This document shows positions 2,668 through 33,963 of a stretch of DNA of 36,399 bases, in pieces (within the stretch, counting starts at the first letter, position 1; every line of letters begins with the position of its first letter). The notes below the pieces were generated by a model that saw only the letters and a list, made by a program, of their open reading frames with translations, was not told the DNA's origin and did not search any database. Location of the stretch: the IMG/VR virus record IMGVR_UViG_3300025339_000010, positions 1-36,399 of that record; one strand, 5' to 3'. The DNA is from a virus (lineage: Duplodnaviria > Caudoviricetes). Both the position numbers and the translations under genes were made by a program.

Positions 2668-3096
2668 ATGGACAAAAAGGTATATTCAATTAAAGAAGCT
2701 AAACAGGATTTAGGCACAAAGCCAACGATTGGTGAATTTTGCTTAACTATGCTTCATCAAGGCACTAATTCACACATTATTCATTTACAAACTAAATCCA
2801 GAACTGAACACAAAATCTTGCAAAAGTTTTATCGTAGAGTTGTGGAAAAAGCAGACGATATTATAGAAATGTGGCAAGGCGTAAATGCTCCACAAATTAT
2901 TGAATATCCTGATAAATGGATTCCGCCTTTAAAAAATGGTTTAGATGACATTATGCGATTCAGAAAATATATGGAAGATAATCGAGATGTATTAGGTGAT
3001 GATTCTGGATTACAAAACCAAATGGATGACATGATGGAATTAATTAATGCCATTGTTTATAAAGAATCAAGATTTGTTGAAAAGAAAGGTCCATAA
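2668..3096 (+). CDS. Ferritin/Dps-like four-helix protein (DUF5856-like)
   Basis: H.IHLQTKS..EHK.L..FY......D.I.E..QG ... LQN..D....LIN...YK pattern. Confidence 0.65.
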   Translation: MDKKVYSIKEAKQDLGTKPTIGEFCLTMLHQGTNSHIIHLQTKSRTEHKILQKFYRRVVEKADDIIEMWQGVNAPQIIEYPDKWIPPLKNGLDDIMRFRKYMEDNRDVLGDDSGLQNQMDDMMELINAIVYKESRFVEKKGP

Positions 3097-3708: not shown

Positions 3709-4006
3709 ATTATTTTGCACTTTACCGCCATTCAATGAATACAAAATGCCACAACCACAAAAAGTCCAATTCGGAATCATTGATACTAATGATGTATTGG
3801 GTTATTTTCATTTTGAACCTTACAGGATTGAAATTGATGTAGCTAATGACAGTTGGCTGAAACTATCGGAAACTATGTTGCATGAAATGGTGCATTTATG
3901 TAGATGTCATAATGGTCATAATGATTTTACTGAACATAATGCCAAATTTGACATATATGCAAAAAGGATTTGTTCGTTATATAATTTTAATTTAGAGGAG
4001 TTTTAA
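3665..4006 (+). CDS. SprT-like zinc metalloprotease domain protein
   Basis: TMLHEMVH (HExxH) followed by H...F. Confidence 0.7.
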   Translation: MAKLLTKQNLRKIYKLFCTLPPFNEYKMPQPQKVQFGIIDTNDVLGYFHFEPYRIEIDVANDSWLKLSETMLHEMVHLCRCHNGHNDFTEHNAKFDIYAKRICSLYNFNLEEF

Positions 4007-4007
4007 A

Positions 4008-4226
4008 ATGAAAGAAAAATTAAAGCAATTAGGCGATTTTTTATTAGAAGTTGCATTATTTGGTTTTAGAGTATTTTTATCTGTTTCATTTGCGCTTGTG
4101 AATGAATTAGTTGTTGTTTTAACCAAATTAGACACATTAATCAATAAAGAAATTACAAAAGTTGATGTTCAAGTTGCAAAGCCAGTTCAAGCAACACCAG
4201 CTCCAACAGGATTGACAATCAATTGA
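4008..4226 (+). CDS. Hypothetical (possibly membrane-associated) protein
   Basis: GAGGAG RBS; hydrophobic central helix. Confidence 0.6.
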   Translation: MKEKLKQLGDFLLEVALFGFRVFLSVSFALVNELVVVLTKLDTLINKEITKVDVQVAKPVQATPAPTGLTIN

Positions 4227-10060: not shown

Positions 10061-11422
10061 ATGTCAGATAAAATTATTCAAAAGCTAGACGCAATTGAAG
10101 AAAAAACTTTAGCTCGTCAAGAAGAAATCATCAAGTCAGTAGATGAAAAACTTGAAGCTACAGTTGCTTCATTTGATGAAAAGGTGCAAGCACTTGAAGC
10201 GAAAGTTGCTTCAGTTCAAGCTCCAGCAATCGTTAAGATTGAAAAAACTGTTCGTGGTGATGTTAATAAAATGGTTAAAGAACAATTAGCCAGCTTTATT
10301 AAAACAAACGGCAGATTTGAAAAAGAAATCAAAATGTTTGAAGATGCTTCACAATATGATGCATACATCAAGGAAAGTTCTGGTTTAACTGGTTCTGGTG
10401 CTGGTGTCGGTGGTAGAACATTCTACGATCCAGTATTCCATCCACTTCGTTTAATCAACCCAATGCGTGGTGTATCTCGTTCTGTTGCAACTGATGGTTC
10501 AACATATCAATTCCGTGCTAAAGTTGGTAACGCTGGTGCTATGTGGGGTTATCCAATCAACAACAATACTTCTGCTGGTTCTGGTGTTCCTAACCCAACT
10601 ACAGAAAACACAAACATTTGGCAATTAACACTTCAAGACATCAATACACAGTTCCCAATCAGAACTGCGGCTCTTGATGACATCGATGGTTTAGAATCAA
10701 ATGTTGTTGATGATATGTTAGCTGAATTTAGCCAACAAGAAGGCTTATCAATGATTCAAAACAATGACCAAGCTGATCCAGCTACTGTATCTTATGGTGG
10801 TTCAAATGGCTTGCGTGGTTTAAATCAATATGCTGGTGCTAATGCATCTTACACAGGCGGCACATTTACTACTGCGGCTTTCGGTTCATCAGGCACAGGC
10901 TCAACAAGTGGTTTACATTCATTAAGCACATACGATCAATTAACATCAAACGGCGATAATGTAGTTGCTAATGCAGTTACTTATGCTGATATTGTTAATT
11001 TCATCTATAGCTTGCCACAACAATATTGGACACCTAATGCTAAATTTGTTATCAACCCAATCATGCTTTCAGCAATTCGTGGTTTAACAGATTTACAAGG
11101 CAGACCAATCTACATTGATGGTTTAGCTCGTGAAGATGGTATCGTTGGTTCTTTACTTGGCTTTGATGTTGTAGTTAATAAATATGTTGATTTACCAACA
11201 GGAACTACTGCATCTGTAGGCACAGAAAGCAAATATCCAATGTATTTTGCAGACTGGTCAAGATTCCATACTATCGTTGATCGTTTAAATATGATCTTGC
11301 GTAGATATGATCAAACTTTACCGGGCTACATTACATTCTATGGTGAAAAACGACTATGCACTTCAGTTGTTGATCCATTTGCTGGTGTTCGTTATCGTTC
11401 TACTGCAACTGCTACTAACTAA
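10061..11422 (+). CDS. Major capsid protein (HK97 fold) with N-terminal coiled-coil delta domain
   Basis: Follows the protease; helical N-terminus; NPMRGVS, LPQQY...A.FVINP, D..GRPI, LLGFDVVVN, PG.I.FY.EKR. Confidence 0.93.
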   Translation: MSDKIIQKLDAIEEKTLARQEEIIKSVDEKLEATVASFDEKVQALEAKVASVQAPAIVKIEKTVRGDVNKMVKEQLASFIKTNGRFEKEIKMFEDASQYDAYIKESSGLTGSGAGVGGRTFYDPVFHPLRLINPMRGVSRSVATDGSTYQFRAKVGNAGAMWGYPINNNTSAGSGVPNPTTENTNIWQLTLQDINTQFPIRTAALDDIDGLESNVVDDMLAEFSQQEGLSMIQNNDQADPATVSYGGSNGLRGLNQYAGANASYTGGTFTTAAFGSSGTGSTSGLHSLSTYDQLTSNGDNVVANAVTYADIVNFIYSLPQQYWTPNAKFVINPIMLSAIRGLTDLQGRPIYIDGLAREDGIVGSLLGFDVVVNKYVDLPTGTTASVGTESKYPMYFADWSRFHTIVDRLNMILRRYDQTLPGYITFYGEKRLCTSVVDPFAGVRYRSTATATN

Positions 11423-11490: not shown

Positions 11491-12564
11491 ATGAAAGCAT
11501 CTAAAAAAGTTTTAGAAGGTATAAAACAAGCTATACTCGAAGGCGAATCAAAAGTTAGCTTTAGAGAAGATAAAAAATCTAAAAAAGATGCACAAGAATC
11601 TGAACAAATTAACGAAGCATCTAACATTACTGGTTCAGGTAGCGGCGTTGGTGGTAAGGTAATATTTGATGAAGCATTTGCGGCACTTCGTTATGCCAAT
11701 CCTTTCCGTATGGGAAGCCGAGAAATTATTGTTAATGGTTCTGATGCTCAATTCGTAGCAAAAGTTGGTAATGCGGCAAATTCAACTAATCCATTTGGAT
11801 ATACAGTTGTGCCTAATAGTGGTTCACCAAATATTGCTACATCTATCTGGCAATTGCCAGTTCGTGTTTTATCAGCAGTTTTGCCAGTTCGTAGTGCAGT
11901 TTTAACTGATGTTAATGCATTAGAAGAAGCTCTTGTTAATGACTTAATGCTTGAATTTAGTCAGTTAGAAGGTCAATCTATGGCTTTAAATAACGATCAA
12001 TCTGGTTCATCAACAACTGCTTATGGTGCAACTTCTGGTTTAAGAGGTTTACCAACTTACAATACTGGTTCTACTGCATCATTTGGTTCAAGTGGAACTG
12101 CAAGCACTAATGGTATTCATACAATTGCTACAGTAACTCATAGCACAACTGCAATTGATTATGATTCATTAGCAGATATGGCTTCAGCTTTACCAGCTCA
12201 ATATTGGGCATTACCTACAACTGCTTGGCATATTCATCCATCACTTATTTTAGAATTGCGTGTTCTTAAAGATACAGTTGGTATGCCAGTTTATTTAGAA
12301 GTTGGTAATTCAAATGGCGGTGCAGTTGCTAATTTATTTGGTTTCCCTGTGATCCCAAATCCATATTTAGCCGCTCCCGGAACTGGTAACATTTCATGCG
12401 TATTAGCAAATTGGGATCGTTTTATGACCATTGGCGATACAGAGGAAATGACATTTAAGATGTTTGAACAAACTCAACCGGGCTTTATAAATATCTATGC
12501 CGAAAAGCGTATGGTATCCACAATTCGTGATCCATTTGCTGGCGTATTCTTGAAAGGCGTATAA
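11491..12564 (+). CDS. Second HK97-fold capsid protein (paralogue of 10061..11422)
   Basis: Colinear similarity to MCP1: TGSGSGVGG, NPFR, AKVGNA, IWQL, EFSQLEG.SM..NNDQ, GLRGL, LPAQYW, QTQPGFI.IYAEKR, DPFAGV. Confidence 0.9.
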   Translation: MKASKKVLEGIKQAILEGESKVSFREDKKSKKDAQESEQINEASNITGSGSGVGGKVIFDEAFAALRYANPFRMGSREIIVNGSDAQFVAKVGNAANSTNPFGYTVVPNSGSPNIATSIWQLPVRVLSAVLPVRSAVLTDVNALEEALVNDLMLEFSQLEGQSMALNNDQSGSSTTAYGATSGLRGLPTYNTGSTASFGSSGTASTNGIHTIATVTHSTTAIDYDSLADMASALPAQYWALPTTAWHIHPSLILELRVLKDTVGMPVYLEVGNSNGGAVANLFGFPVIPNPYLAAPGTGNISCVLANWDRFMTIGDTEEMTFKMFEQTQPGFINIYAEKRMVSTIRDPFAGVFLKGV

Positions 12565-24432: not shown

Positions 24433-25578
24433 ATGAATACAATACAAGAGTTTCAAAATAAAGGCTATGTTCACTTAAAATCATTTTTGCCTGAACATAC
24501 TTGTAAAGAATTAACTGATGAATTAAATAGATTAGTTAAAGAACAAAAAACAGTTAATGATGAACAATGTCCTAAATCTCAAGCAGTGCATGGTGCTGAA
24601 GCTTTTGATAGATTATTGGAACATTGTTTACCTTATTTTGAACAAGCATCAGGCTTAAAACTTTATCCTACTTATTCTTATGCTCGCCTTTATAATCAAC
24701 AAGGTGAGGAATTAAAAAATCATAGAGATAGACCAGCTTGCGAAATATCAGCCACAATTACTTTAGGTTTTGAAGGTAATGTATGGTCTATTTACATGGG
24801 TGATGATGAAGCCAAAACAGTCAATGTAAATAAAATTGATATGGCTATTGGCGATGCAGTCATGTATCGAGGAATGGATAAATGGCATTGGCGCAAACCT
24901 TATTTTGAAGGACAATGGCAAGCTCAAGTATTCTTGCATTATGTGGATGCTAATGGACCGCATAAAGAATGGAAGTATGATAAGCGAGAATCATTAGGTA
25001 TTAATAAAACTGAACAAACTAATCAACAATTTGATGTAGCTTATGTAATTAAAAAAGGTGTTTCAAATAATTTTTGCGATAACTTAATTAAAGAATATTC
25101 CAAAGATGAAACTGAAAAAGAACAACCTTTTATTGGTGAAGGTCGAGATTTAAAAAAGAATATAAATCTTGATATTAGGAATGTGTTAAGAGTAATACTT
25201 CCACAAAATCAAGGTATAGGTGCAACACTTACTTCATGCGGATTAAATCTTAATCATCAATTTTGGCAATACAATATTACTCATTCAAATCAAACTGAAT
25301 TTTTAATGTATGATGTCAATGGTAAATATGAAGCCCATGTGGATACATTTCATCAATTAAGCAATGAAACAAGAAAATTAACTTGTTTAGCTATTCTTAA
25401 TGATGACTTTGAAGGTGGTAAGTTTTATATTATGAATAGCCATGAAAAGATATATCCGCCACAAGAAAAAGGCGATATTATTGTATTTCCATCATTTATG
25501 GTGCATGGTGTAGAACCAGTAACAAAGGGCAAAAGATTTACAGTAGTAACATGGTTAGTAGGTCCATATTTTAAATAA
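24433..25578 (+). CDS. Two-domain 2OG-Fe(II) oxygenase (prolyl-4-hydroxylase/PKHD-like)
   Basis: Domain 1: PTYSYARLY, HRDRP.CEIS, HWR. Domain 2: Y.AHVD, RKLT, FEGG.F, FPSF..HGVEPVT.G.R...VTW. Confidence 0.9.
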   Translation: MNTIQEFQNKGYVHLKSFLPEHTCKELTDELNRLVKEQKTVNDEQCPKSQAVHGAEAFDRLLEHCLPYFEQASGLKLYPTYSYARLYNQQGEELKNHRDRPACEISATITLGFEGNVWSIYMGDDEAKTVNVNKIDMAIGDAVMYRGMDKWHWRKPYFEGQWQAQVFLHYVDANGPHKEWKYDKRESLGINKTEQTNQQFDVAYVIKKGVSNNFCDNLIKEYSKDETEKEQPFIGEGRDLKKNINLDIRNVLRVILPQNQGIGATLTSCGLNLNHQFWQYNITHSNQTEFLMYDVNGKYEAHVDTFHQLSNETRKLTCLAILNDDFEGGKFYIMNSHEKIYPPQEKGDIIVFPSFMVHGVEPVTKGKRFTVVTWLVGPYFK

Positions 25579-26149: not shown

Positions 26150-29047
26150 ATGGCTACATTGTCGATTACACAAGGTGCTACGACAGACATAGCCGTAACT
26201 GTCAATCAAACTTCAGTTGATGTTATTCAAGGCAATAATATTAATGTTGAAGTTATCCCAAATCAAACTTTAGATGTAACTCTTGATCGTGGCTTATATG
26301 GTCCATCAGGATTTTCTGGCTATTCAGGCTATAGTGGTTATTCAGGTTTTGGCTTTTCTGGTTATAGCGGTCAATCAGGCTATTCTGGATATTCTGGCTA
26401 CTCCGGAAGTGGCGTTAGCGGATACTCTGGATATAGCGGTTCTGGTGTAAGTGGCTATTCTGGCTATTCTGGCATAAGCGGATATTCTGGCGCACAAGGC
26501 ACATCTGGCTTTAGCGGCATATCAGGTTTTAGCGGCATATCTGGATATTCAGGAATTAGCGGATATAGCGGATTTTCAGGAATAAGTGGCTATTCAGGAT
26601 ATAGTGGTTCAGGTGTATCTGGTTATAGTGGCTTTTCTGGAATTTCAGGTTATTCTGGTGATAGCGGCACATCTGGCTTTAGCGGTATTTCAGGATTTAG
26701 CGGTATTTCAGGATTTAGTGGTGATAGTGGCATAAGTGGTTGGTCTGGTATATCAGGATTTTCAGGATATAGTGGTATTTCAGGTTGGTCAGGATTTTCT
26801 GGTGAATCTGGTTACTCTGGTTTTTCAGGAATTTCAGGATTTTCTGGTGATTCAGGAATATCTGGTTGGTCAGGCATTAGCGGATATAGCGGATATAGCG
26901 GTGATAGCGGAATATCTGGCTATTCTGGTTTTTCTGGCTTTAGTGGTCAGCAAGGCACATCAATTAATATTATTGGCACAGTTGCAACTCCAGCAGATTT
27001 ACCATCAACAGGAAGTCAAAATGATGCATACATAGTTTCATCTAATGGTGATCTTTATGTATGGGAAGGTTCATCTTGGGTTAATGTAGGTCAAATTGTA
27101 GGACCATCAGGTGCAAGTGGTTTATCAGGTTTTAGCGGGTATTCAGGCATATCTGGATTTAGTGGATTTAGTGGCATATCTGGTTATAGTGGTATTGATG
27201 GTCAATCAGGCTTTAGTGGAATTAGTGGTTTTTCTGGAATATCTGGATATAGTGGATATTCAGGCATTAGTGGATTTTCTGGTGATTCAGGTATAAGTGG
27301 TTATAGCGGATATTCAGGCGCAATAGGCGCATCTGGTATTAGTGGATTTTCAGGATGGAGTGGTTATAGTGGACAAGTTGGCGCATCAGGCATTAGTGGC
27401 TATTCTGGTTATAGTGGCACAAACGGCACAAATGGTGCAAGCGGAATATCAGGATATAGTGGCTATTCAGGAAGTGGCATAAGCGGATATTCAGGTTACT
27501 CTGGATTTTCTGGTAGTGGCATATCAGGTTATAGTGGTTATTCAGGAATCAATGGTGCATCAGGTTATAGCGGTATAAGCGGATATAGTGGATTTTCTGG
27601 TAGCGGAGTTTCTGGCTATTCTGGTTACTCTGGCTTTTCAGGTTCAGGCATAAGTGGATACTCTGGTTATTCCGGTTCAGGTATATCTGGTTATAGTGGC
27701 TTTAGTGGAATTAGTGGTTATAGCGGATTTTCTGGTTCTGGTATTAGTGGTTATTCTGGTTACTCTGGTTCTGGTATTTCAGGCTATTCTGGTTACTCCG
27801 GTTCTGGCACATCTGGTTATAGCGGTTATAGTGGCGCACAAGGCACATCAGGTTATTCAGGATATTCTGGTGCAACTGGAGCTACTGGAGCTGGTGGAGC
27901 TTTAGGTTATTATGGTTCATTTTATGACACAACTAATCAAACTGCATCAAGCACAACAGTTGCTTATGTAGTCAATATTGGATCAACATTTGAAGATAAT
28001 GGCGTATCAATCACTTCAGGCAATAGAATTACTTTTGCTTATGCTGGAACATATAATATTCAATATTCAATTCAATTTGCTAATAGTGATGCTAATGGCG
28101 ATAATGTTGATGTATGGTTAAGAAAAAATGGATCAGATGTTGCTGATAGTAATTCAATATATAATGTGCCGGGAACTTCACATGGTGGTGCTGGAGCTTT
28201 AATTGCCGCAATAAATTATGTATTAACAGTTGCGGCTGGTGATTATTTACAATTAGTTTATGCAGTATCTTCAACAACAATATCAATTGCTACAACTTCA
28301 GCACAAACAGGACCAACTGTTCCTGTAACTCCTGGTGTTATTGTTACTGCTTCTCAAGTCATGTATGGTCAATCAGGATATAGTGGATATTCTGGTTATT
28401 CAGGTATATCAGGCTATTCTGGCATATCAGGTTATAGTGGCTCTGGCATTAGCGGTTATTCTGGATATAGCGGATCAGGCGTGTCAGGATATTCTGGTTA
28501 TTCTGGTGCGGTAGGTGCATCTGGCATATCTGGCTATAGCGGATATTCTGGCGCAGTAGGAACATCAGGTTATTCTGGATATAGTGGAAGTGGTATTAGT
28601 GGTTATTCAGGTTACTCTGGTTCAGGAATTAGCGGATATAGTGGTTACTCTGGTGCAGTAGGAACATCCGGCTATAGTGGCTATTCAGGAATTTCAGGCA
28701 CGAATGGCACAAATGGTGCATCAGGTATATCTGGTTATTCTGGTTATTCCGGCTCTGGTATAAGTGGATATTCAGGCTATTCAGGATCAGGAATTTCAGG
28801 CTATTCTGGATACTCTGGTTATAGTGGAACTGCGGCTAAAGTAATGACTTATGATTCATTTACTTCAACTGCTTCTCAAACAACATTTTCAACATCTTTA
28901 AGTTATACTTCTGGTAATATAGAAGTATTTTTACAAGGTGTAAGAATGTTAAATGGAACTGATGTTACAGTTACATCAGGAACTTCAATTGTATTTGCAG
29001 TTGCATTATCGGCTGGACAATCAGTAACGGCAGTATATCCACATTAA
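26150..29047 (+). CDS. Collagen-like fibre protein with (Gly-X-Ser)n repeats and an internal C1q/BclA-like domain
   Basis: Hundreds of residues of SGY/SGF/SGI triplets in three blocks; insert DLP......DAYIV...LYVW; YGSFYD.T.Q...ITF..AGTYNIQYSIQF domain; C-terminal ASQTTF....Y..G.IEVFL.GV. Confidence 0.85.
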   Translation: MATLSITQGATTDIAVTVNQTSVDVIQGNNINVEVIPNQTLDVTLDRGLYGPSGFSGYSGYSGYSGFGFSGYSGQSGYSGYSGYSGSGVSGYSGYSGSGVSGYSGYSGISGYSGAQGTSGFSGISGFSGISGYSGISGYSGFSGISGYSGYSGSGVSGYSGFSGISGYSGDSGTSGFSGISGFSGISGFSGDSGISGWSGISGFSGYSGISGWSGFSGESGYSGFSGISGFSGDSGISGWSGISGYSGYSGDSGISGYSGFSGFSGQQGTSINIIGTVATPADLPSTGSQNDAYIVSSNGDLYVWEGSSWVNVGQIVGPSGASGLSGFSGYSGISGFSGFSGISGYSGIDGQSGFSGISGFSGISGYSGYSGISGFSGDSGISGYSGYSGAIGASGISGFSGWSGYSGQVGASGISGYSGYSGTNGTNGASGISGYSGYSGSGISGYSGYSGFSGSGISGYSGYSGINGASGYSGISGYSGFSGSGVSGYSGYSGFSGSGISGYSGYSGSGISGYSGFSGISGYSGFSGSGISGYSGYSGSGISGYSGYSGSGTSGYSGYSGAQGTSGYSGYSGATGATGAGGALGYYGSFYDTTNQTASSTTVAYVVNIGSTFEDNGVSITSGNRITFAYAGTYNIQYSIQFANSDANGDNVDVWLRKNGSDVADSNSIYNVPGTSHGGAGALIAAINYVLTVAAGDYLQLVYAVSSTTISIATTSAQTGPTVPVTPGVIVTASQVMYGQSGYSGYSGYSGISGYSGISGYSGSGISGYSGYSGSGVSGYSGYSGAVGASGISGYSGYSGAVGTSGYSGYSGSGISGYSGYSGSGISGYSGYSGAVGTSGYSGYSGISGTNGTNGASGISGYSGYSGSGISGYSGYSGSGISGYSGYSGYSGTAAKVMTYDSFTSTASQTTFSTSLSYTSGNIEVFLQGVRMLNGTDVTVTSGTSIVFAVALSAGQSVTAVYPH
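26300..28830 (+). repeat. Coding 9-bp-period repeats (Ser-Gly-Tyr/Phe/Ile) in three blocks (~26300-26950, ~27105-27870, ~28370-28830)
   Basis: Directly visible, e.g. TCTGGCTAT/AGCGGATAT/TCAGGTTAT; synonymous codons heavily mixed. Confidence 0.95.
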
Positions 29048-29059
29048 TAAAGGATAAGA

Positions 29060-29686
29060 ATGGATAAGAAAAGATTAGAGTTGGCTTATGCTAAAGAGCA
29101 TGATCCAAACCATTATAGATATTTACTTACTAATAATTATGAGCGAGCAGTTTTTCTAAAAGGCGATCCAGTCTTTCCTAGAGAAACTTCTCGTTATCTT
29201 TGGGCTAATCGAAATCTATTAGGTAAAAAAATTCTTGAAATTGGATGTTCCAATGGTTATGGCGTTCAATTCTTACCAAATGATATTGAATATTTAGGAT
29301 TGGACTACGATCCTATAATAATTGATGTCGCAAACGAACAAGAATGGGGTTTAAACGCATCTTTTGTTCAATCTGATATAAATACTTATCCTTTAGATCA
29401 ATACGACACTATTATTGCTTTTGAGTTTATTGAACATATAGATAATGGTCTTGAAATAGCTCAAAAATTAAAACAACATTGCAAACGATTACTTCTCACA
29501 ACTCCATATAATGAACCCAAAGGCTTTTGGGGTGAACATCATAAACTTCATGGCTTATCCGAAATAAACTTTCCCGGCTTTAAATTTGAATACATTGATG
29601 AAGGTGGTTTTATATCAAAAACTCCAGCTTCAATTAATGAAGGTAATAGATTTAACCTTATGATTATGAGGTGGGATAATGAGTAG
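29060..29686 (+). CDS. Class I SAM-dependent methyltransferase
   Basis: ILEIGCSNGYG motif I, YLGLD, YDTIIAFEFIEHI, LLLTTP. Confidence 0.9.
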   Translation: MDKKRLELAYAKEHDPNHYRYLLTNNYERAVFLKGDPVFPRETSRYLWANRNLLGKKILEIGCSNGYGVQFLPNDIEYLGLDYDPIIIDVANEQEWGLNASFVQSDINTYPLDQYDTIIAFEFIEHIDNGLEIAQKLKQHCKRLLLTTPYNEPKGFWGEHHKLHGLSEINFPGFKFEYIDEGGFISKTPASINEGNRFNLMIMRWDNE

Positions 29687-30647
29687 CATTTTATGTTCAA
29701 TATCAACTCGTGGTCGTTATCATACGACTTTGCCAGTAGTCCTAGAAGCAATCATAAATCAAACCAAAAAACCAGACAAACTTATTATCTTTGATGACAA
29801 TGATCAAACAGAAGATATGCGAGAAGTCTTATTCTATAAATACTATTTCCAAAGATTAGATATAAAAGGCATTAAATGGGAATGGCAATTTGCGGCTAAA
29901 AAAGGTCAGCACCATAACCATCAAATAGCTAATATGATGGGCTATGATTTTGTATGGCGTGTAGATGATGATGCGATTCCAGAACCTAATGTTTTAGAAA
30001 CACTATTGTCATATATGAATGATAATGTAGGTGCAGTTGGTGGTGAAATATTAACGCCGCCACATAACCCAATGACTATGTTATCAACTGGCAAAATAGA
30101 AGATATTGATAAAGAGCCAAACATTCAATGGACTACGATTAAAGATGTTAAAGAAGTTGAGCATTTACATTGTTCTTTTTTATATAGAGCTGGTATTCAT
30201 GATTACAATTTAGGACTATCCAGAGTTGCACATAGAGAAGAAACTTTATTTACTTATGGGTTATTTAGAAAAGGCTATAAACTTTTAGTTGTGCCTAATG
30301 CAACAATTTGGCATCTTAAAAATCCTGATGGTGGAATAAGAGCCGAATCAAATACACAACTTTATGAACATGATGAGATGATATTTAGAAACATATTGAA
30401 TTATAAAGATAAAAAAATTGTGGTTCTTGAAGGTGGCATGGGCGATCATATTGTATTTAGTCATGTAATCCCAGACATTACAAATGCAGAAGTCTTTACT
30501 TGCTTTCCAGATATTGTTCCCGGCAGATCAATTTCAGAAGCTAAATCATTGTTTGGCGATATAAGTCAATACAATATTTATAAAAAAATGTGCGATTGGA
30601 AGTGGACTGATAGCCTAGAAAATGCTTATATAAAGTTATATATATGA
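29679..30647 (+). CDS. GT2 glycosyltransferase fused to the N-terminal lobe of a GT9-like enzyme
   Basis: IINQT..PD.LIIFDD, RVDDD (DxD), HREET; C-terminal KKIVVLEGGMGDHIVF. Confidence 0.85.
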   Translation: MSSILCSISTRGRYHTTLPVVLEAIINQTKKPDKLIIFDDNDQTEDMREVLFYKYYFQRLDIKGIKWEWQFAAKKGQHHNHQIANMMGYDFVWRVDDDAIPEPNVLETLLSYMNDNVGAVGGEILTPPHNPMTMLSTGKIEDIDKEPNIQWTTIKDVKEVEHLHCSFLYRAGIHDYNLGLSRVAHREETLFTYGLFRKGYKLLVVPNATIWHLKNPDGGIRAESNTQLYEHDEMIFRNILNYKDKKIVVLEGGMGDHIVFSHVIPDITNAEVFTCFPDIVPGRSISEAKSLFGDISQYNIYKKMCDWKWTDSLENAYIKLYI

Positions 30648-31072
30648 TAATAATTTCGCCATTTGCACAAAAATTACATAATGGAAAAGTAAATCCAAAG
30701 AATTATGGATACTGGAATAATCTTATACCATTGATTAAAGAAGATATTGTTCAAGTAGGTATTAATGGTGAGAACGCATTAGTTCCAGACTTTAGAAAAA
30801 ATTTATCATTAAGTGAGTTGAAAAAATTAATATCTGAATGTAGAATCTGGATTGGATGCGATAGCTTTTTCCAGCATCTTGCATGGGATCAAAAAAAACA
30901 AGGCATTGTATTATGGTCAGTTTCCGATCCATTAATATTTGGACATCCAGAAAATATTAATTTGCTAAAAGACAGAAAAAATTTAGCGGAAAACCAATTT
31001 TTATGGTGGGATTATGTTGAATATGATGCAACTAAATTTGTTACTCCTGATGAAGTAATAAAATGGCTATAA
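30644..31072 (+). CDS. GT9-like (heptosyltransferase-type GT-B) C-terminal lobe
   Basis: IIISPFA...KNY..W..LI, LSLSEL..LI..C..WIGCDS..QHLA, IVLW..SDP..FG, VTPDEVI. Confidence 0.8.
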   Translation: MIIISPFAQKLHNGKVNPKNYGYWNNLIPLIKEDIVQVGINGENALVPDFRKNLSLSELKKLISECRIWIGCDSFFQHLAWDQKKQGIVLWSVSDPLIFGHPENINLLKDRKNLAENQFLWWDYVEYDATKFVTPDEVIKWL

Positions 31073-32005: not shown

Positions 32006-32120
32006 TGTAAAGTATATTTTACATCCGTTTTCACTCAAGTCATTGATTTATATATAAAGAATGAAAACAATTTGCATGAAACTTTAATAATTAAATCAAA
32101 AAAAGTGATATATATTACAC

Positions 32121-32150
32121 AAAAAAAGGGAGCAATTAAGCTCCCCTTTA
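32121..32150 (-). terminator. Rho-independent terminator for the - strand operon (possibly bidirectional)
   Basis: Minus strand GGGAGC-ttaatt-GCTCCC followed by TTTTTTT; lies between convergent operons. Confidence 0.8.
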
Positions 32151-32253
32151 TCCTACATAAACAAGTCCAAATTTGATAGTTATTTCATGTTGGTGTGAAA
32201 ACTACAAAAATCCCAACTTACTATATCCTTTGATGGTAGTTTGACAAACTGGT

Positions 32254-32325
32254 TTACTTGTTCATTATATACATAGTTACTTCAAAACCAAATCTCATTT
32301 CAGTTGCTGATGGTGTAGTCCACAT
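32254..32325 (-). CDS. pqqA: Pyrroloquinoline quinone precursor peptide PqqA (MWTTPSATEMRFGFEVTMYIMNK)
   Basis: Manual translation; W..P....R.GFEVTMY signature with the ExxxY Glu/Tyr pair; TAAGGAG RBS 8 nt upstream. Confidence 0.95.
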   Translation of the reverse strand: MWTTPSATEMRFGFEVTMYIMNK

Positions 32326-32344
32326 AGTTATATCTCCTTAAAAT

Positions 32345-32366
32345 ATATACATAACATTATGTATAT
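32345..32366. promoter_or_regulatory. Palindrome upstream of pqqA (operator-like)
   Basis: ATATACATAA-ca-TTATGTATAT, a perfect 10-bp inverted repeat. Confidence 0.45.
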
Positions 32367-32412
32367 GTATGTATTTTGTCATTTTGTAAACATATTAACA
32401 TCAGTAAAATCA

Positions 32413-32652
32413 TTAAAATGGGATTGAATCACCAGCACCAGAGCTATGATCTGTTCCAGCTCCATTTTTAGGTGGTAATGGATCACGCATTTGAATCCAA
32501 CCATCAAAATTAACTGGGAGTTGTTCAATTAACAAAGCAGTTCCGCCAGACTTATTAGTCATAGCTACACCAACTTTTGTCCATCTTGCTTTTGTTTCAC
32601 CATCTTTTTGATACTCGCCAGATTTAGCGATTAAATCATGTGTTATTGCCAT
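32413..32652 (-). CDS. Small SSB-like protein
   Basis: Y..DGE.K.RW..VG.A pattern; acidic/aromatic tail DSIPF; follows exo/ERF. Confidence 0.65.
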   Translation of the reverse strand: MAITHDLIAKSGEYQKDGETKARWTKVGVAMTNKSGGTALLIEQLPVNFDGWIQMRDPLPPKNGAGTDHSSGAGDSIPF

Positions 32653-33298
32653 TTGTTAGTTCCTTTAGTTGAGTTAATATCATATCAATTTCGCTATTAA
32701 ATGCGATCACCGCACTTTCAGCTTTTTGTTTCCAATCTTGATCAACCAAGATTCGTGTTGCAAACATCTTTAAATGATCCGGCATTTCAGGATCAAATGA
32801 CACTAGATCACACCATTGGCGTTGAGTGCATACCAACTGCCATTGGACTTGATCGTAATAAGTTTTAATTAAATCTTTACCATTTTCGAGAAGATGCCCT
32901 AAATGATTTTCTGGGCTTGGACATTTAATTTCAAGTAAACCATCAGTTCCAACAAGACCATCTGGACTACAACCAGCCATAGGAATTGTGGGATGATCTA
33001 CAAAAGCTATTTGTTCTACCATTACTTGATATTTATGCTCATAGAAAGCCCTTGCAAGCGGTTCTAACTCAATTCCACGAGCCATTAATGGTGTTTTATA
33101 GGATTGGATGCGTTTGCCTGTTAAACGCTCTCGTATGAGTTCATTCTTATATTTTTTACGAGTTAATGATTCATTACCGGATCGACCTTCGGTAAGCAAA
33201 TCTGAAAAACGACTACCAGACACTTTTCCTAATTTTAATAAAAACCAAGCATCCGAACCTTGCTCGATATTATTTACTTCTGTGTTTAAGTTTGACAT
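32636..33298 (-). CDS. YqaJ/lambda-type exonuclease
   Basis: EQGS..W...LG....S, RG.ELEP.AR, GCSPDGLV, LEIKCP, Y..QVQWQL. Confidence 0.92.
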   Translation of the reverse strand: MSNLNTEVNNIEQGSDAWFLLKLGKVSGSRFSDLLTEGRSGNESLTRKKYKNELIRERLTGKRIQSYKTPLMARGIELEPLARAFYEHKYQVMVEQIAFVDHPTIPMAGCSPDGLVGTDGLLEIKCPSPENHLGHLLENGKDLIKTYYDQVQWQLVCTQRQWCDLVSFDPEMPDHLKMFATRILVDQDWKQKAESAVIAFNSEIDMILTQLKELTNGNNT

Positions 33299-33422
33299 AT
33301 CCTAGTTTCCTTTTTTTAAACTCTTGTTTTATTTGTTTTACTTTCATAGCTCTAATTGTTAAATCCATAAGTTCATAAGGACTTACTTTAAAGTCTATGC
33401 CGTAGAAGTTATTTAGTAACAT
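33270..33422 (-). CDS. Hypothetical small protein (50 aa)
   Basis: Read manually; overlaps both neighbours and fills the gap. Confidence 0.35.
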   Translation of the reverse strand: MLLNNFYGIDFKVSPYELMDLTIRAMKVKQIKQEFKKRKLGYVKLKHRSK

Positions 33423-33963
33423 TGAGCTTTTCCTTCATCTTGTCTTTTTCTTTAATAACCATTTGAGTTAATAATTTGTCATTCTTAACTTCATTAAGAA
33501 CTGCTAGGTAATTCTTTTCTAATTCTGCTAAAGATTTAGATGTTGATATGCGTTTAATAAAATCATCAGCTTTTAAAGATGCGGTTTGACCATCGTCATC
33601 ATCTTGATAAAGACCAATGATTGTAGCTAATGTATAGCGGCGTAAATAAGTTAAAGCTGAACCAAATCCTTGTGCATCTTGTTTAGCTAATGGGCAAGTT
33701 GCAGTATCTTCTATAAATTCACCAGAAGTATGAATAAGGCGAGTTGTGAGATTTAATCTTCCATCATCACTAGGGCTAACAAACTGTAAAAATACAATTC
33801 CAGCATTATTAAGAGCTGGTTTAATAGCATCAATAACTGATGATAATGATGCATATTTGCTCCGAAAATGTGGATTGGTAGATTCTTTAGCCGCAAATGT
33901 AATGTCTTTTTGAGCTTGTAAAAGTGCTGGCGAGATTTGTTTGATTGATTCTGAAGTTATCAT
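33409..33963 (-). CDS. erf: ERF-family ssDNA-annealing recombinase
   Basis: NPHF.SKYA.L, L.H.SGE, Q.FGSALTY.RRY.L....G....DDDG. Confidence 0.92.
   Translation of the reverse strand: MITSESIKQISPALLQAQKDITFAAKESTNPHFRSKYASLSSVIDAIKPALNNAGIVFLQFVSPSDDGRLNLTTRLIHTSGEFIEDTATCPLAKQDAQGFGSALTYLRRYTLATIIGLYQDDDDGQTASLKADDFIKRISTSKSLAELEKNYLAVLNEVKNDKLLTQMVIKEKDKMKEKLNVTK

Follow-up and report, generated by a model that had tools for sequence, protein, structure and literature searches.

We found that a complete phage genome carries an intact stand-alone pqqA, and that this gene lies behind a 17-bp palindrome which, in Methylophilaceae genomes, is situated before genes of PQQ synthesis and import. 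It is probable, in our judgement, that the host regulator of PQQ supply switches on the phage pqqA through this box, and that the extra peptide is made into PQQ for methanol dehydrogenase during infection. The parts of this mechanism that can be read directly in the sequences are the gene, its conservation, the box, its 21-nt spacing to a predicted -10 hexamer, and the host targets. Methanol oxidisers of the Methylophilaceae are abundant, with Methylopumilus found in lakes and OM43 in coastal seas. PqqE and PqqD cross-link a Glu and a Tyr of PqqA, and the resulting PQQ is the cofactor of methanol dehydrogenase (PMC7678222, PMC9851590). The regulation of PQQ synthesis has been called unclear (PMC9851590), and the box provides a concrete target for this unsolved question.

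The phage genome and its orphan pqqA

The window, i.e. the whole stretch of DNA that was analysed, is an entire virus record of 36,399 bases, rated 100% complete by CheckV. Terminase, portal, HK97-type capsid, and tape-measure genes were present by Pfam, and no match to an integrase or repressor was found among the ORFs scanned with Pfam and PHROG. Phage P19250A (KX815270) was syntenic with the window, 73% of which aligned at about 70% nucleotide identity, and protein identities reached 81.5% for TerL, 73% for the portal, and 69% for the capsid. By gene order and core-protein similarity, the window is a P19250A-like phage. The host of P19250A is given as freshwater LD28/Methylopumilus (PMC8163748, PMC7678222). 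The 20 runs listed with the region, six of them flagged as possible source, were all freshwater or lake metagenomes, and no RNA dataset was among the runs listed as containing it. Based on the synteny with P19250A and the origin of these runs, a Methylopumilus-like host is likely.

The pqqA coding sequence was located at 32254..32325 on the minus strand by ORF and profile scores. It encodes 23 aa, MWTTPSATEMRFGFEVTMYIMNK, with Glu15 and Tyr19 in the ExxxY arrangement, and a Shine-Dalgarno sequence, TAAGGAG, was read at 32334..32340 (-), 8 nt upstream of the ATG. The peptide scored 41.3 bits with Pfam PqqA PF08042 (cut-off 21.1, E 1.4e-10) and 38.5 bits with NCBIfam TIGR02107 (cut-off 20). The initial annotation, made from the letters alone, had proposed a stand-alone phage PqqA behind a TAAGGAG ribosome-binding site and suggested an HMM search as a check; both profiles scored above their curated cut-offs, and the proposal held. 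The absence of pqqB-E that it had noted was also confirmed, as host PqqB, C, D, E, XoxF, and regulator ORFs gave no tblastn match in the window (E<=0.01). The 36,399-base record contains one copy of pqqA and no complete pqq operon, so that the gene is an orphan, as additional copies in hosts usually are. The peptide is one residue away from a host form, and the gene differed at 6 of 63 bases from the nearest host copy fetched. Since Glu15 and Tyr19 are kept and only one residue separates it from a host form, the phage PqqA should be a substrate that host PqqD, E, B, and C would convert to PQQ. The peptide matched no PHROG family and no PDB sequence.

The gene lies on the same strand as those for an ERF single-strand annealing protein (33409..33963), a YqaJ-type exonuclease of the recombination module (32636..33298; both by Pfam and PHROG), and an SSB-like protein (32413..32652), with a gap of 87 nt from the SSB stop. 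The last of these had no Pfam match and a PHROG of unknown function; it is 62% identical to P19250A gp30 and likely a single-strand DNA-binding protein, judging from its acidic tail ending in IPF and its position. With phage genes on both sides in a genuine phage genome, this gene of host metabolism qualifies by its context as an auxiliary metabolic gene. A chimeric host insertion, which the initial annotation had considered, was not borne out, as independent contigs join pqqA to phage genes: in runs not flagged as possible source, one contig covers 32284-33400, and a second has 32096-32330 linked to 32399-32872. A close variant has other sequence in place of the 68 nt that separate the RBS from the box, and the box, the gene, and both flanks are retained.

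An intrinsic terminator-like hairpin with a T-run follows pqqA at 32124..32149 (-) and was also called on the plus strand. At the predicted 5' end of the transcript, an AT-rich hairpin (32345..32366, -) was weak, being present in the minimum-energy fold and not in the centroid, and the 251-nt fold was not clearly more stable than shuffles (z -1.7). Searches of the window for Rfam families and tRNAs gave no match. The non-coding stretches between viral pqqA genes and their terminators are of several different conserved kinds; that of the window (32150-32253, -), which has no Rfam match, is common to locus L080, and others are found at L058, L081, L088, L106, L122, and L124, and at L002, L025, L032, and L041.

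Other features of the window were observed. Two adjacent genes (10061-11422 and 11491-12564) both match PF05065 (phage capsid family), and both are conserved in P19250A. The region 26150-31072, common to P19250A, encodes a 965-aa Gly-Tyr-Ser repeat protein that matches a collagen Pfam family. Behind it come genes for a methyltransferase, a GT2, and a GT9-like glycosyltransferase, and the set may represent a fibre together with dedicated modification genes. A 2OG-Fe(II) oxygenase gene at 24433-25578 has no match in P19250A and is 69-70% identical in genomes G129 and G130, and 2668-3096 holds a DUF5856 / PHROG 858 'starvation-inducible' gene. P19250A gp31 (L410, 28452-29108), recorded as a diguanylate cyclase/phosphodiesterase, is likely misannotated, since it is 58.7% identical to the YqaJ exonuclease of the window.

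Spread and conservation of viral pqqA

PqqA was compared by tblastn with 50,697 GenBank phage records, and 12 matches were obtained: P19250A, Venkman, MEP301, MEP401, MEP402, four Melnitz records, ctXG6705, and two Acinetobacter contigs, the last two weak (E 0.2). Nine of these records are cultured Methylophilales phages of different genome types, and ctXG6705 is environmental. At the pqqA match, seven records (including one of the four Melnitz) showed either no feature or a hypothetical gene on the opposite strand; P19250A, with pqqA at 91% identity, has no annotation of it. The gene was missed in cultured phages because it is only 72 bases long. No match was found for MEP431-434, HIM624-A, phiMB624-A, Venkman EXVC038S, MG-MtP1, or RSA-MfP1, of which HIM624-A is a partial genome, EXVC038S did not turn up in the collection, and the rest may be absent from it, so the result does not speak for every cultured phage.

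In IMG/VR, we estimated about 1,800 stretches with a strict pattern and about 3,300 with a loose one, extrapolating from 5/64 and 3/64 parts respectively and counting stretches, not species. In a sample from the loose pattern, 120 of 120 viral matches were short intact ORFs, defined by an ATG 1-4 codons upstream of the Trp and a stop within 32 codons, a definition under which broken copies would be missed. Since a loose, degenerate pattern gave this result, the viral matches are not due to chance. In this sample, 85 matches were of the Methylophilaceae type; a set of 120 loci comprised 109 distinct coding sequences. Over 79 distinct viral sequences of that type pN/pS was about 0.08, a value biased low because the search patterns fixed several residues; with all 120 copies intact, it indicates purifying selection in phages. 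The gene context fell into 18 clusters among 80 viral loci with flanks, and one of the 80 had a match of at least 50% to ORFs of the fetched host loci.

The position of pqqA is the same in P19250A and in two relatives (G124 and G127) as in the window. Among 11 near-complete relatives chosen by terminase, only three carried pqqA, which rules out a core gene of the whole terminase lineage. The two relatives with pqqA behind SSB are the nearest to the window and have the lowest GC (0.35-0.36); non-carriers range from 0.37 to 0.46 and may have other hosts.

The initial annotation had called the peptide typical of Methylophilaceae. The pattern EMRFGFEVTMY does match mostly Methylophilaceae among the 80 GTDB loci listed. 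As an identifier of the host, for which the annotation had also taken it, the peptide is insufficient by itself, because MAGs of other Burkholderiales have the same core and viruses also carry further PqqA types; the host assignment comes through the P19250A alignment. Viral forms beyond the Methylophilaceae type (among L415-L654, IMG/VR) include DMRFGFEITMYIANR forms, RLGFE(V/I)TMYFK forms, and EINCY forms, and point to phages of other PQQ-using hosts.

Copies of pqqA in host genomes

The view of the initial annotation that methylotrophs carry several pqqA copies agreed with the genomes: pqqA was present in 121 of 121 genomes of the Methylophilaceae family (581 matches, median 5), four having a single copy. 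Small host genomes (1.2-1.4 Mb) mostly had three copies, and PqqB was single-copy in 30 of 31 host genomes. These counts agree with the 3-12 copies of pqqA versus single pqqB-G reported earlier, and fit an importance of precursor dosage (PMC4109929).

Tandem pqqA pairs about 200 nt apart were seen on two MAG contigs (L175, L184) and in small host genomes (G088, G096, G112, G118). The sequence upstream of viral locus L103 is the same as that of L175, suggesting recent capture or a host fragment in IMG/VR. In Ca. Methylopumilus universalis (G001), L315 1478-7601 contains pqqB with the next three genes (likely pqqCDE), a transporter, and a PqqU-like receptor; this cluster has two boxes and no pqqA, and three pqqA copies are elsewhere in the genome. 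An OxyR-like LysR gene is convergent with an orphan pqqA in 11 host loci (L142, L146, L157, L162, L163, L172, L173, L191, L196, L293, L312).

A 17-bp box upstream of phage pqqA

The palindrome was first picked up from words enriched upstream of host and viral pqqA copies. A matrix was then trained solely on host pqqA upstream regions, 104 of 117 of which had a site (consensus CTMATGAWWWTCATKAG). The -10 hexamers were scored with sigma-70 frequencies, and all start sites are predictions. In the window, the box is a 17-bp imperfect palindrome at 32400..32416 (-), scoring 13.2 bits and identical to the 17-bp box of P19250A; its first four bases overlap the SSB stop codon. The predicted -10 hexamer, CAAAAT, is at 32373..32378 (-), 21 nt after the box, and is CATAAT in G124 and G127. 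No -35 consensus was found at this promoter, and a sigma-70 scan, which returned 14 sites in the window against 14.1 expected, contained no consensus promoter for pqqA. By its matrix match and conserved -10 distance, the window promoter belongs to the class of host PQQ-gene promoters. The initial annotation had described pqqA as the last gene of the recombination operon; the gene does follow SSB on the same strand, but the description is incomplete because a promoter of its own, with an operator of host type, is predicted for pqqA.

With the host-trained matrix, a box above 8 bits was detected before 57 of 105 dereplicated phage pqqA copies, the other 48 scoring below, as compared with 4/220 other viral ORFs, 17/2100 shuffles, and 0/103 downstream stretches. 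Viral boxes were concentrated 80-120 nt upstream of the ATG, and their distance to the -10 hexamer had a mode of 21-22 nt (18 cases), which is the position of the second site in hosts. In an enlarged set, 61 of 111 Methylophilaceae-type viral copies had the box, 46 of the 61 being free of overlap with an RBS or stop codon; the box also preceded 21/42 DMRFGFEITMYIANR-type and 0/4 EINCY-type copies. Since the window box overlaps the SSB stop, relatives were compared, and the box followed SSB in four of four genomes with pqqA there (window, P19250A, G124, G127) and in none of seven without. An artefact of the SSB stop or RBS sequence is largely rejected by the overlap-free cases and by the boxless relatives that lack pqqA.

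Ranked over whole genomes, the pqqA box was the top site in Venkman, MEP301, and ctXG6705 and the second in P19250A; in the window it was tied third to fourth, two matches inside a gene that encodes repeats scoring higher and a site at 3918 scoring the same. The latter (3918-3934, +; 13.2 bits) lies inside an SprT-like gene, 90 nt before a 72-aa ORF at 4008, is outside the top six sites of P19250A, and is possibly due to chance. In Venkman and ctXG6705 the box site includes the RBS of a divergent gene. Box scores were negative within 200 nt of pqqA in MEP401 and MEP402, and in MEP402 a site of 12.3 bits occurs at about 220 nt upstream. The box is likely the host operator, well supported as a sequence, with its binding being a prediction.

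Host genes preceded by the box

In genome-wide pattern searches of host genomes, perfect palindromes were mostly at pqqA, with others before pqqB, a TonB receptor gene, xoxJ, and a cupin gene; a third exact palindrome in G001 sits within a coding sequence. Among orphan pqqA copies of five host genomes, 16 of 18 had a box above 8 bits. The targets were tested in a 31-genome host sample. The box preceded 28 of 28 pqq operons (two of 30 had no callable ORF), a count that is not independent of the training class, because 24 of the 28 have pqqA in front and only four do not. The TonB receptor had PqqU, the PQQ importer, as its best NCBIfam match, with 480-625 bits over the full length; it is called PqqU-like because the model cut-off is 1200. 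The box was found before 20 of 22 PqqU-like genes, one partial locus being excluded, and before 18 of 20 when the discovery genomes were set aside. Of the BtuB-like control receptors, 3/23 had a box, two of the three overlapping the start (2/25 were not callable), and the difference between the receptors was significant (Fisher p ~1e-7).

None of 12 xoxF/mxaF genes had a box above 8 bits within 500 nt, a count made without L277, an ORF picked in error, and without three genes of other quinoproteins. This ruled out the box as a methanol dehydrogenase regulon site, and its link to the enzyme would be through the cofactor only. Upstream regions of xoxF (L262, L266, L269, L273, L274) were seen by eye to have a different, TGTAA-containing direct repeat in common.

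At host promoters, the best -10-like hexamer was 44-45 nt after the box (77 cases), and a weak second box was found at +23 nt. The -35 consensus was absent, as in the phage promoters, and its lack in both classes suggests dependence on an activator.

A candidate regulator

The genes immediately upstream of pqqA encode, in three MAG loci of Burkholderiales, a HisKA_3 sensor and a NarL/LuxR-type regulator. An orthologue of the regulator, 63-71% identical, was present in 31 of 31 Methylophilaceae genomes (in G001 at C1:545657-546289), and a sensor gene adjoins it in eight loci listed of 30. The partner sensor has a LapD/MoxY periplasmic domain (three scanned, two over the cut-off). Based on gene adjacency and co-occurrence, the MoxY-like sensor and NarL-type regulator are a candidate for the box-binding system; the palindrome could be bound by a repressor instead. 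Autoregulation of the candidate regulator was rejected, as no consistent box was present in 30 loci, and OxyR was rejected as the regulator, its gene being convergent with pqqA.

Discussion

In the mechanism that we propose, the box would be the binding site of an activator, the likeliest candidate being the NarL-type response regulator that has the MoxY-domain sensor kinase as its partner. Host promoters would have two sites, centred near -65 and -42, of which the phage would have retained the promoter-proximal one (about -42). The host regulator would then activate the phage promoter when PQQ supply is called for, and the host Pqq enzymes would process the peptide. One PqqA peptide is spent per PQQ and the Pqq enzymes are reusable, so that a 72-bp gene would be the cheapest way to raise the flux, or to replace host pqqA transcripts in a long infection. 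More holo-enzyme would mean more energy and C1 units for progeny, with methanol oxidation sustained. The latent period of MEP401/402 is 17-20 h (PMC10580990). A wider reading, a serious possibility that we place somewhat short of probable, is that one MoxY/NarL-type system controls, through the 17-bp palindrome, a previously undescribed Methylophilaceae PQQ-supply regulon of all pqqA copies, pqqBCDE, and the PqqU-like importer, into which many unrelated lytic phages have plugged the precursor gene with a minimal one-site promoter, its output being set by host PQQ sensing.

Several other explanations were weighed. It is unlikely that pqqA is a PQQ precursor gene read through from the early recombination genes, with the box a relic that came in along with the host gene or a by-product of the SSB stop. 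A terminator scan between SSB and pqqA found none, the left half of the window box is a Phe-stop-stop sequence, and about 45% of phage copies are under the box threshold. However, in six relatives where SSB ends in the same Pro-Phe-stop and pqqA does not follow, no box at that place exceeds 8 bits; the variant with the 68 nt between RBS and box replaced still keeps both box and gene; and Venkman, MEP301, and ctXG6705 have pqqA on the strand opposite to its neighbours and the box as the top site of the genome. We also regard as improbable a use of the extra PQQ other than by methanol dehydrogenase, such as protection from oxidative stress or other quinoproteins. The lack of a box at xoxF or mxaF, the further quinoprotein genes in hosts, the OxyR-like gene adjoining a pqqA copy in the 11 host loci, and the starvation-inducible (PHROG 858) and 2OG-Fe(II) oxygenase genes of the phage would agree with such a use. 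The oxyR gene is convergent with pqqA, however, and has no promoter in common with it; xoxF is likely the main PQQ sink, because in an OM43 isolate no transcript is more abundant (PMC5120137), and Lake Baikal methylotroph phages have methanol dehydrogenase along with PqqA (PMC7678222).

Very little probability is given to a decoy, in which phage DNA soaks up the regulator, or excess peptide ties up PqqD/PqqE, and host PQQ synthesis falls. Replicating phage DNA would multiply the operators, and the boxes are imperfect in phages, where the strong distal site is missing. But the peptide should be a substrate given its conserved Glu15 and Tyr19 and its single difference from a host form, and for a decoy one would expect sites that are strong or repeated and variable in spacing, whereas the phage sites are single and phased to the -10 hexamer. 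Short conserved genes can act as attachment sites, and hosts have several pqqA copies, so pqqA might be an attP copy, neutral captured host DNA, or an assembly chimera. This explanation is largely refuted, and we find it barely credible: no integrase or repressor matched among the scanned ORFs, the 6/63 mismatches to the nearest fetched host copy do not fit a temperate attP, and the shared position of pqqA in P19250A, G124, and G127 and the independent contigs tying it to phage genes argue against neutral DNA or a chimera. Activation of phage pqqA by the host PQQ-supply regulator is the reading we prefer.

Since P19250A, Venkman, MEP301, MEP401/402, and Melnitz are in culture, a guess from metagenomes becomes testable. 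The published OM43 medium contains 1 nM PQQ, which could mask any benefit of the phage gene (PMC9004378). Gene and box together could serve as a host marker for uncultured phages.

Comparison with known systems

The initial annotation had left the novelty of a viral pqqA to be checked, and it is not new: PqqA was reported in the Lake Baikal viral population VP_266 in 2020 (Coutinho et al., PMC7678222) and again among reservoir viral genes in 2026 (PMC13188868), so this type of viral auxiliary gene was already known. Searching the papers on Melnitz, MEP301, MEP401/402, and Venkman gave no pqqA in their main texts, and the sole mention of PQQ there is as a medium additive. Open-access full text yielded no pqqA in cultured phages, no palindrome, and no retention of it by phages, though supplements and subscription papers may hold them.

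As in the window, PqqA of VP_266 is in a phage predicted on Methylophilaceae and was proposed to raise PQQ for methanol oxidation (PMC7678222). VP_266 is T4-like, with methanol dehydrogenase and SAM-cycle genes, whereas the window is a 36-kb P19250A-like genome with pqqA alone, and the available part of that account mentions no promoter or operator. P19250A is said there to encode none of the reported genes, whereas our tblastn detected its pqqA at 91% identity. The Methylophilaceae orphan pqqA genes (PMC4109929; PF08042/TIGR02107) are alike in their near-identical 23-aa stand-alone peptide, RBS, and upstream palindrome. In host orphan promoters, the strong site precedes the -10 hexamer by 44-45 nt and a weak one lies at 21 nt, whereas phage promoters have a shorter leader and mostly a single site, for which 21-22 nt is the most frequent distance. 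The closest phage, P19250A, is syntenic, with TerL at 81.5%, pqqA behind the same gene, and an identical 17-bp box; it differs in having about 70% nucleotide identity over 73% of the window, and in the sequence 3' of pqqA.

Cyanophages carry psbA, phoH, and pstS as auxiliary genes, some of them controlled by Pho boxes. The likeness is that a lytic phage carries a copy of a consumed or fast-turnover part of energy metabolism, and that a host two-component regulator reads phage genes. The cyanophage products are enzymes or transporters, whereas phage PqqA, a ribosomal peptide, is the very substrate from which a cofactor is made, and its regulator is only a candidate. UhpA is known for two-site activation. 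The tandem sites near -65 and -42 and the absence of a -35 consensus at the host box promoters resemble UhpA as well as the MxcQE, MxaY/MxaB, and PedS2/R2 systems. With these three the candidate also has in common a MoxY-type periplasmic sensor, HisKA_3, and a NarL/LuxR regulator (PMC11845868); they control dehydrogenase genes, whereas the box described here lies before genes of PQQ synthesis and import and not before xoxF or mxaF.
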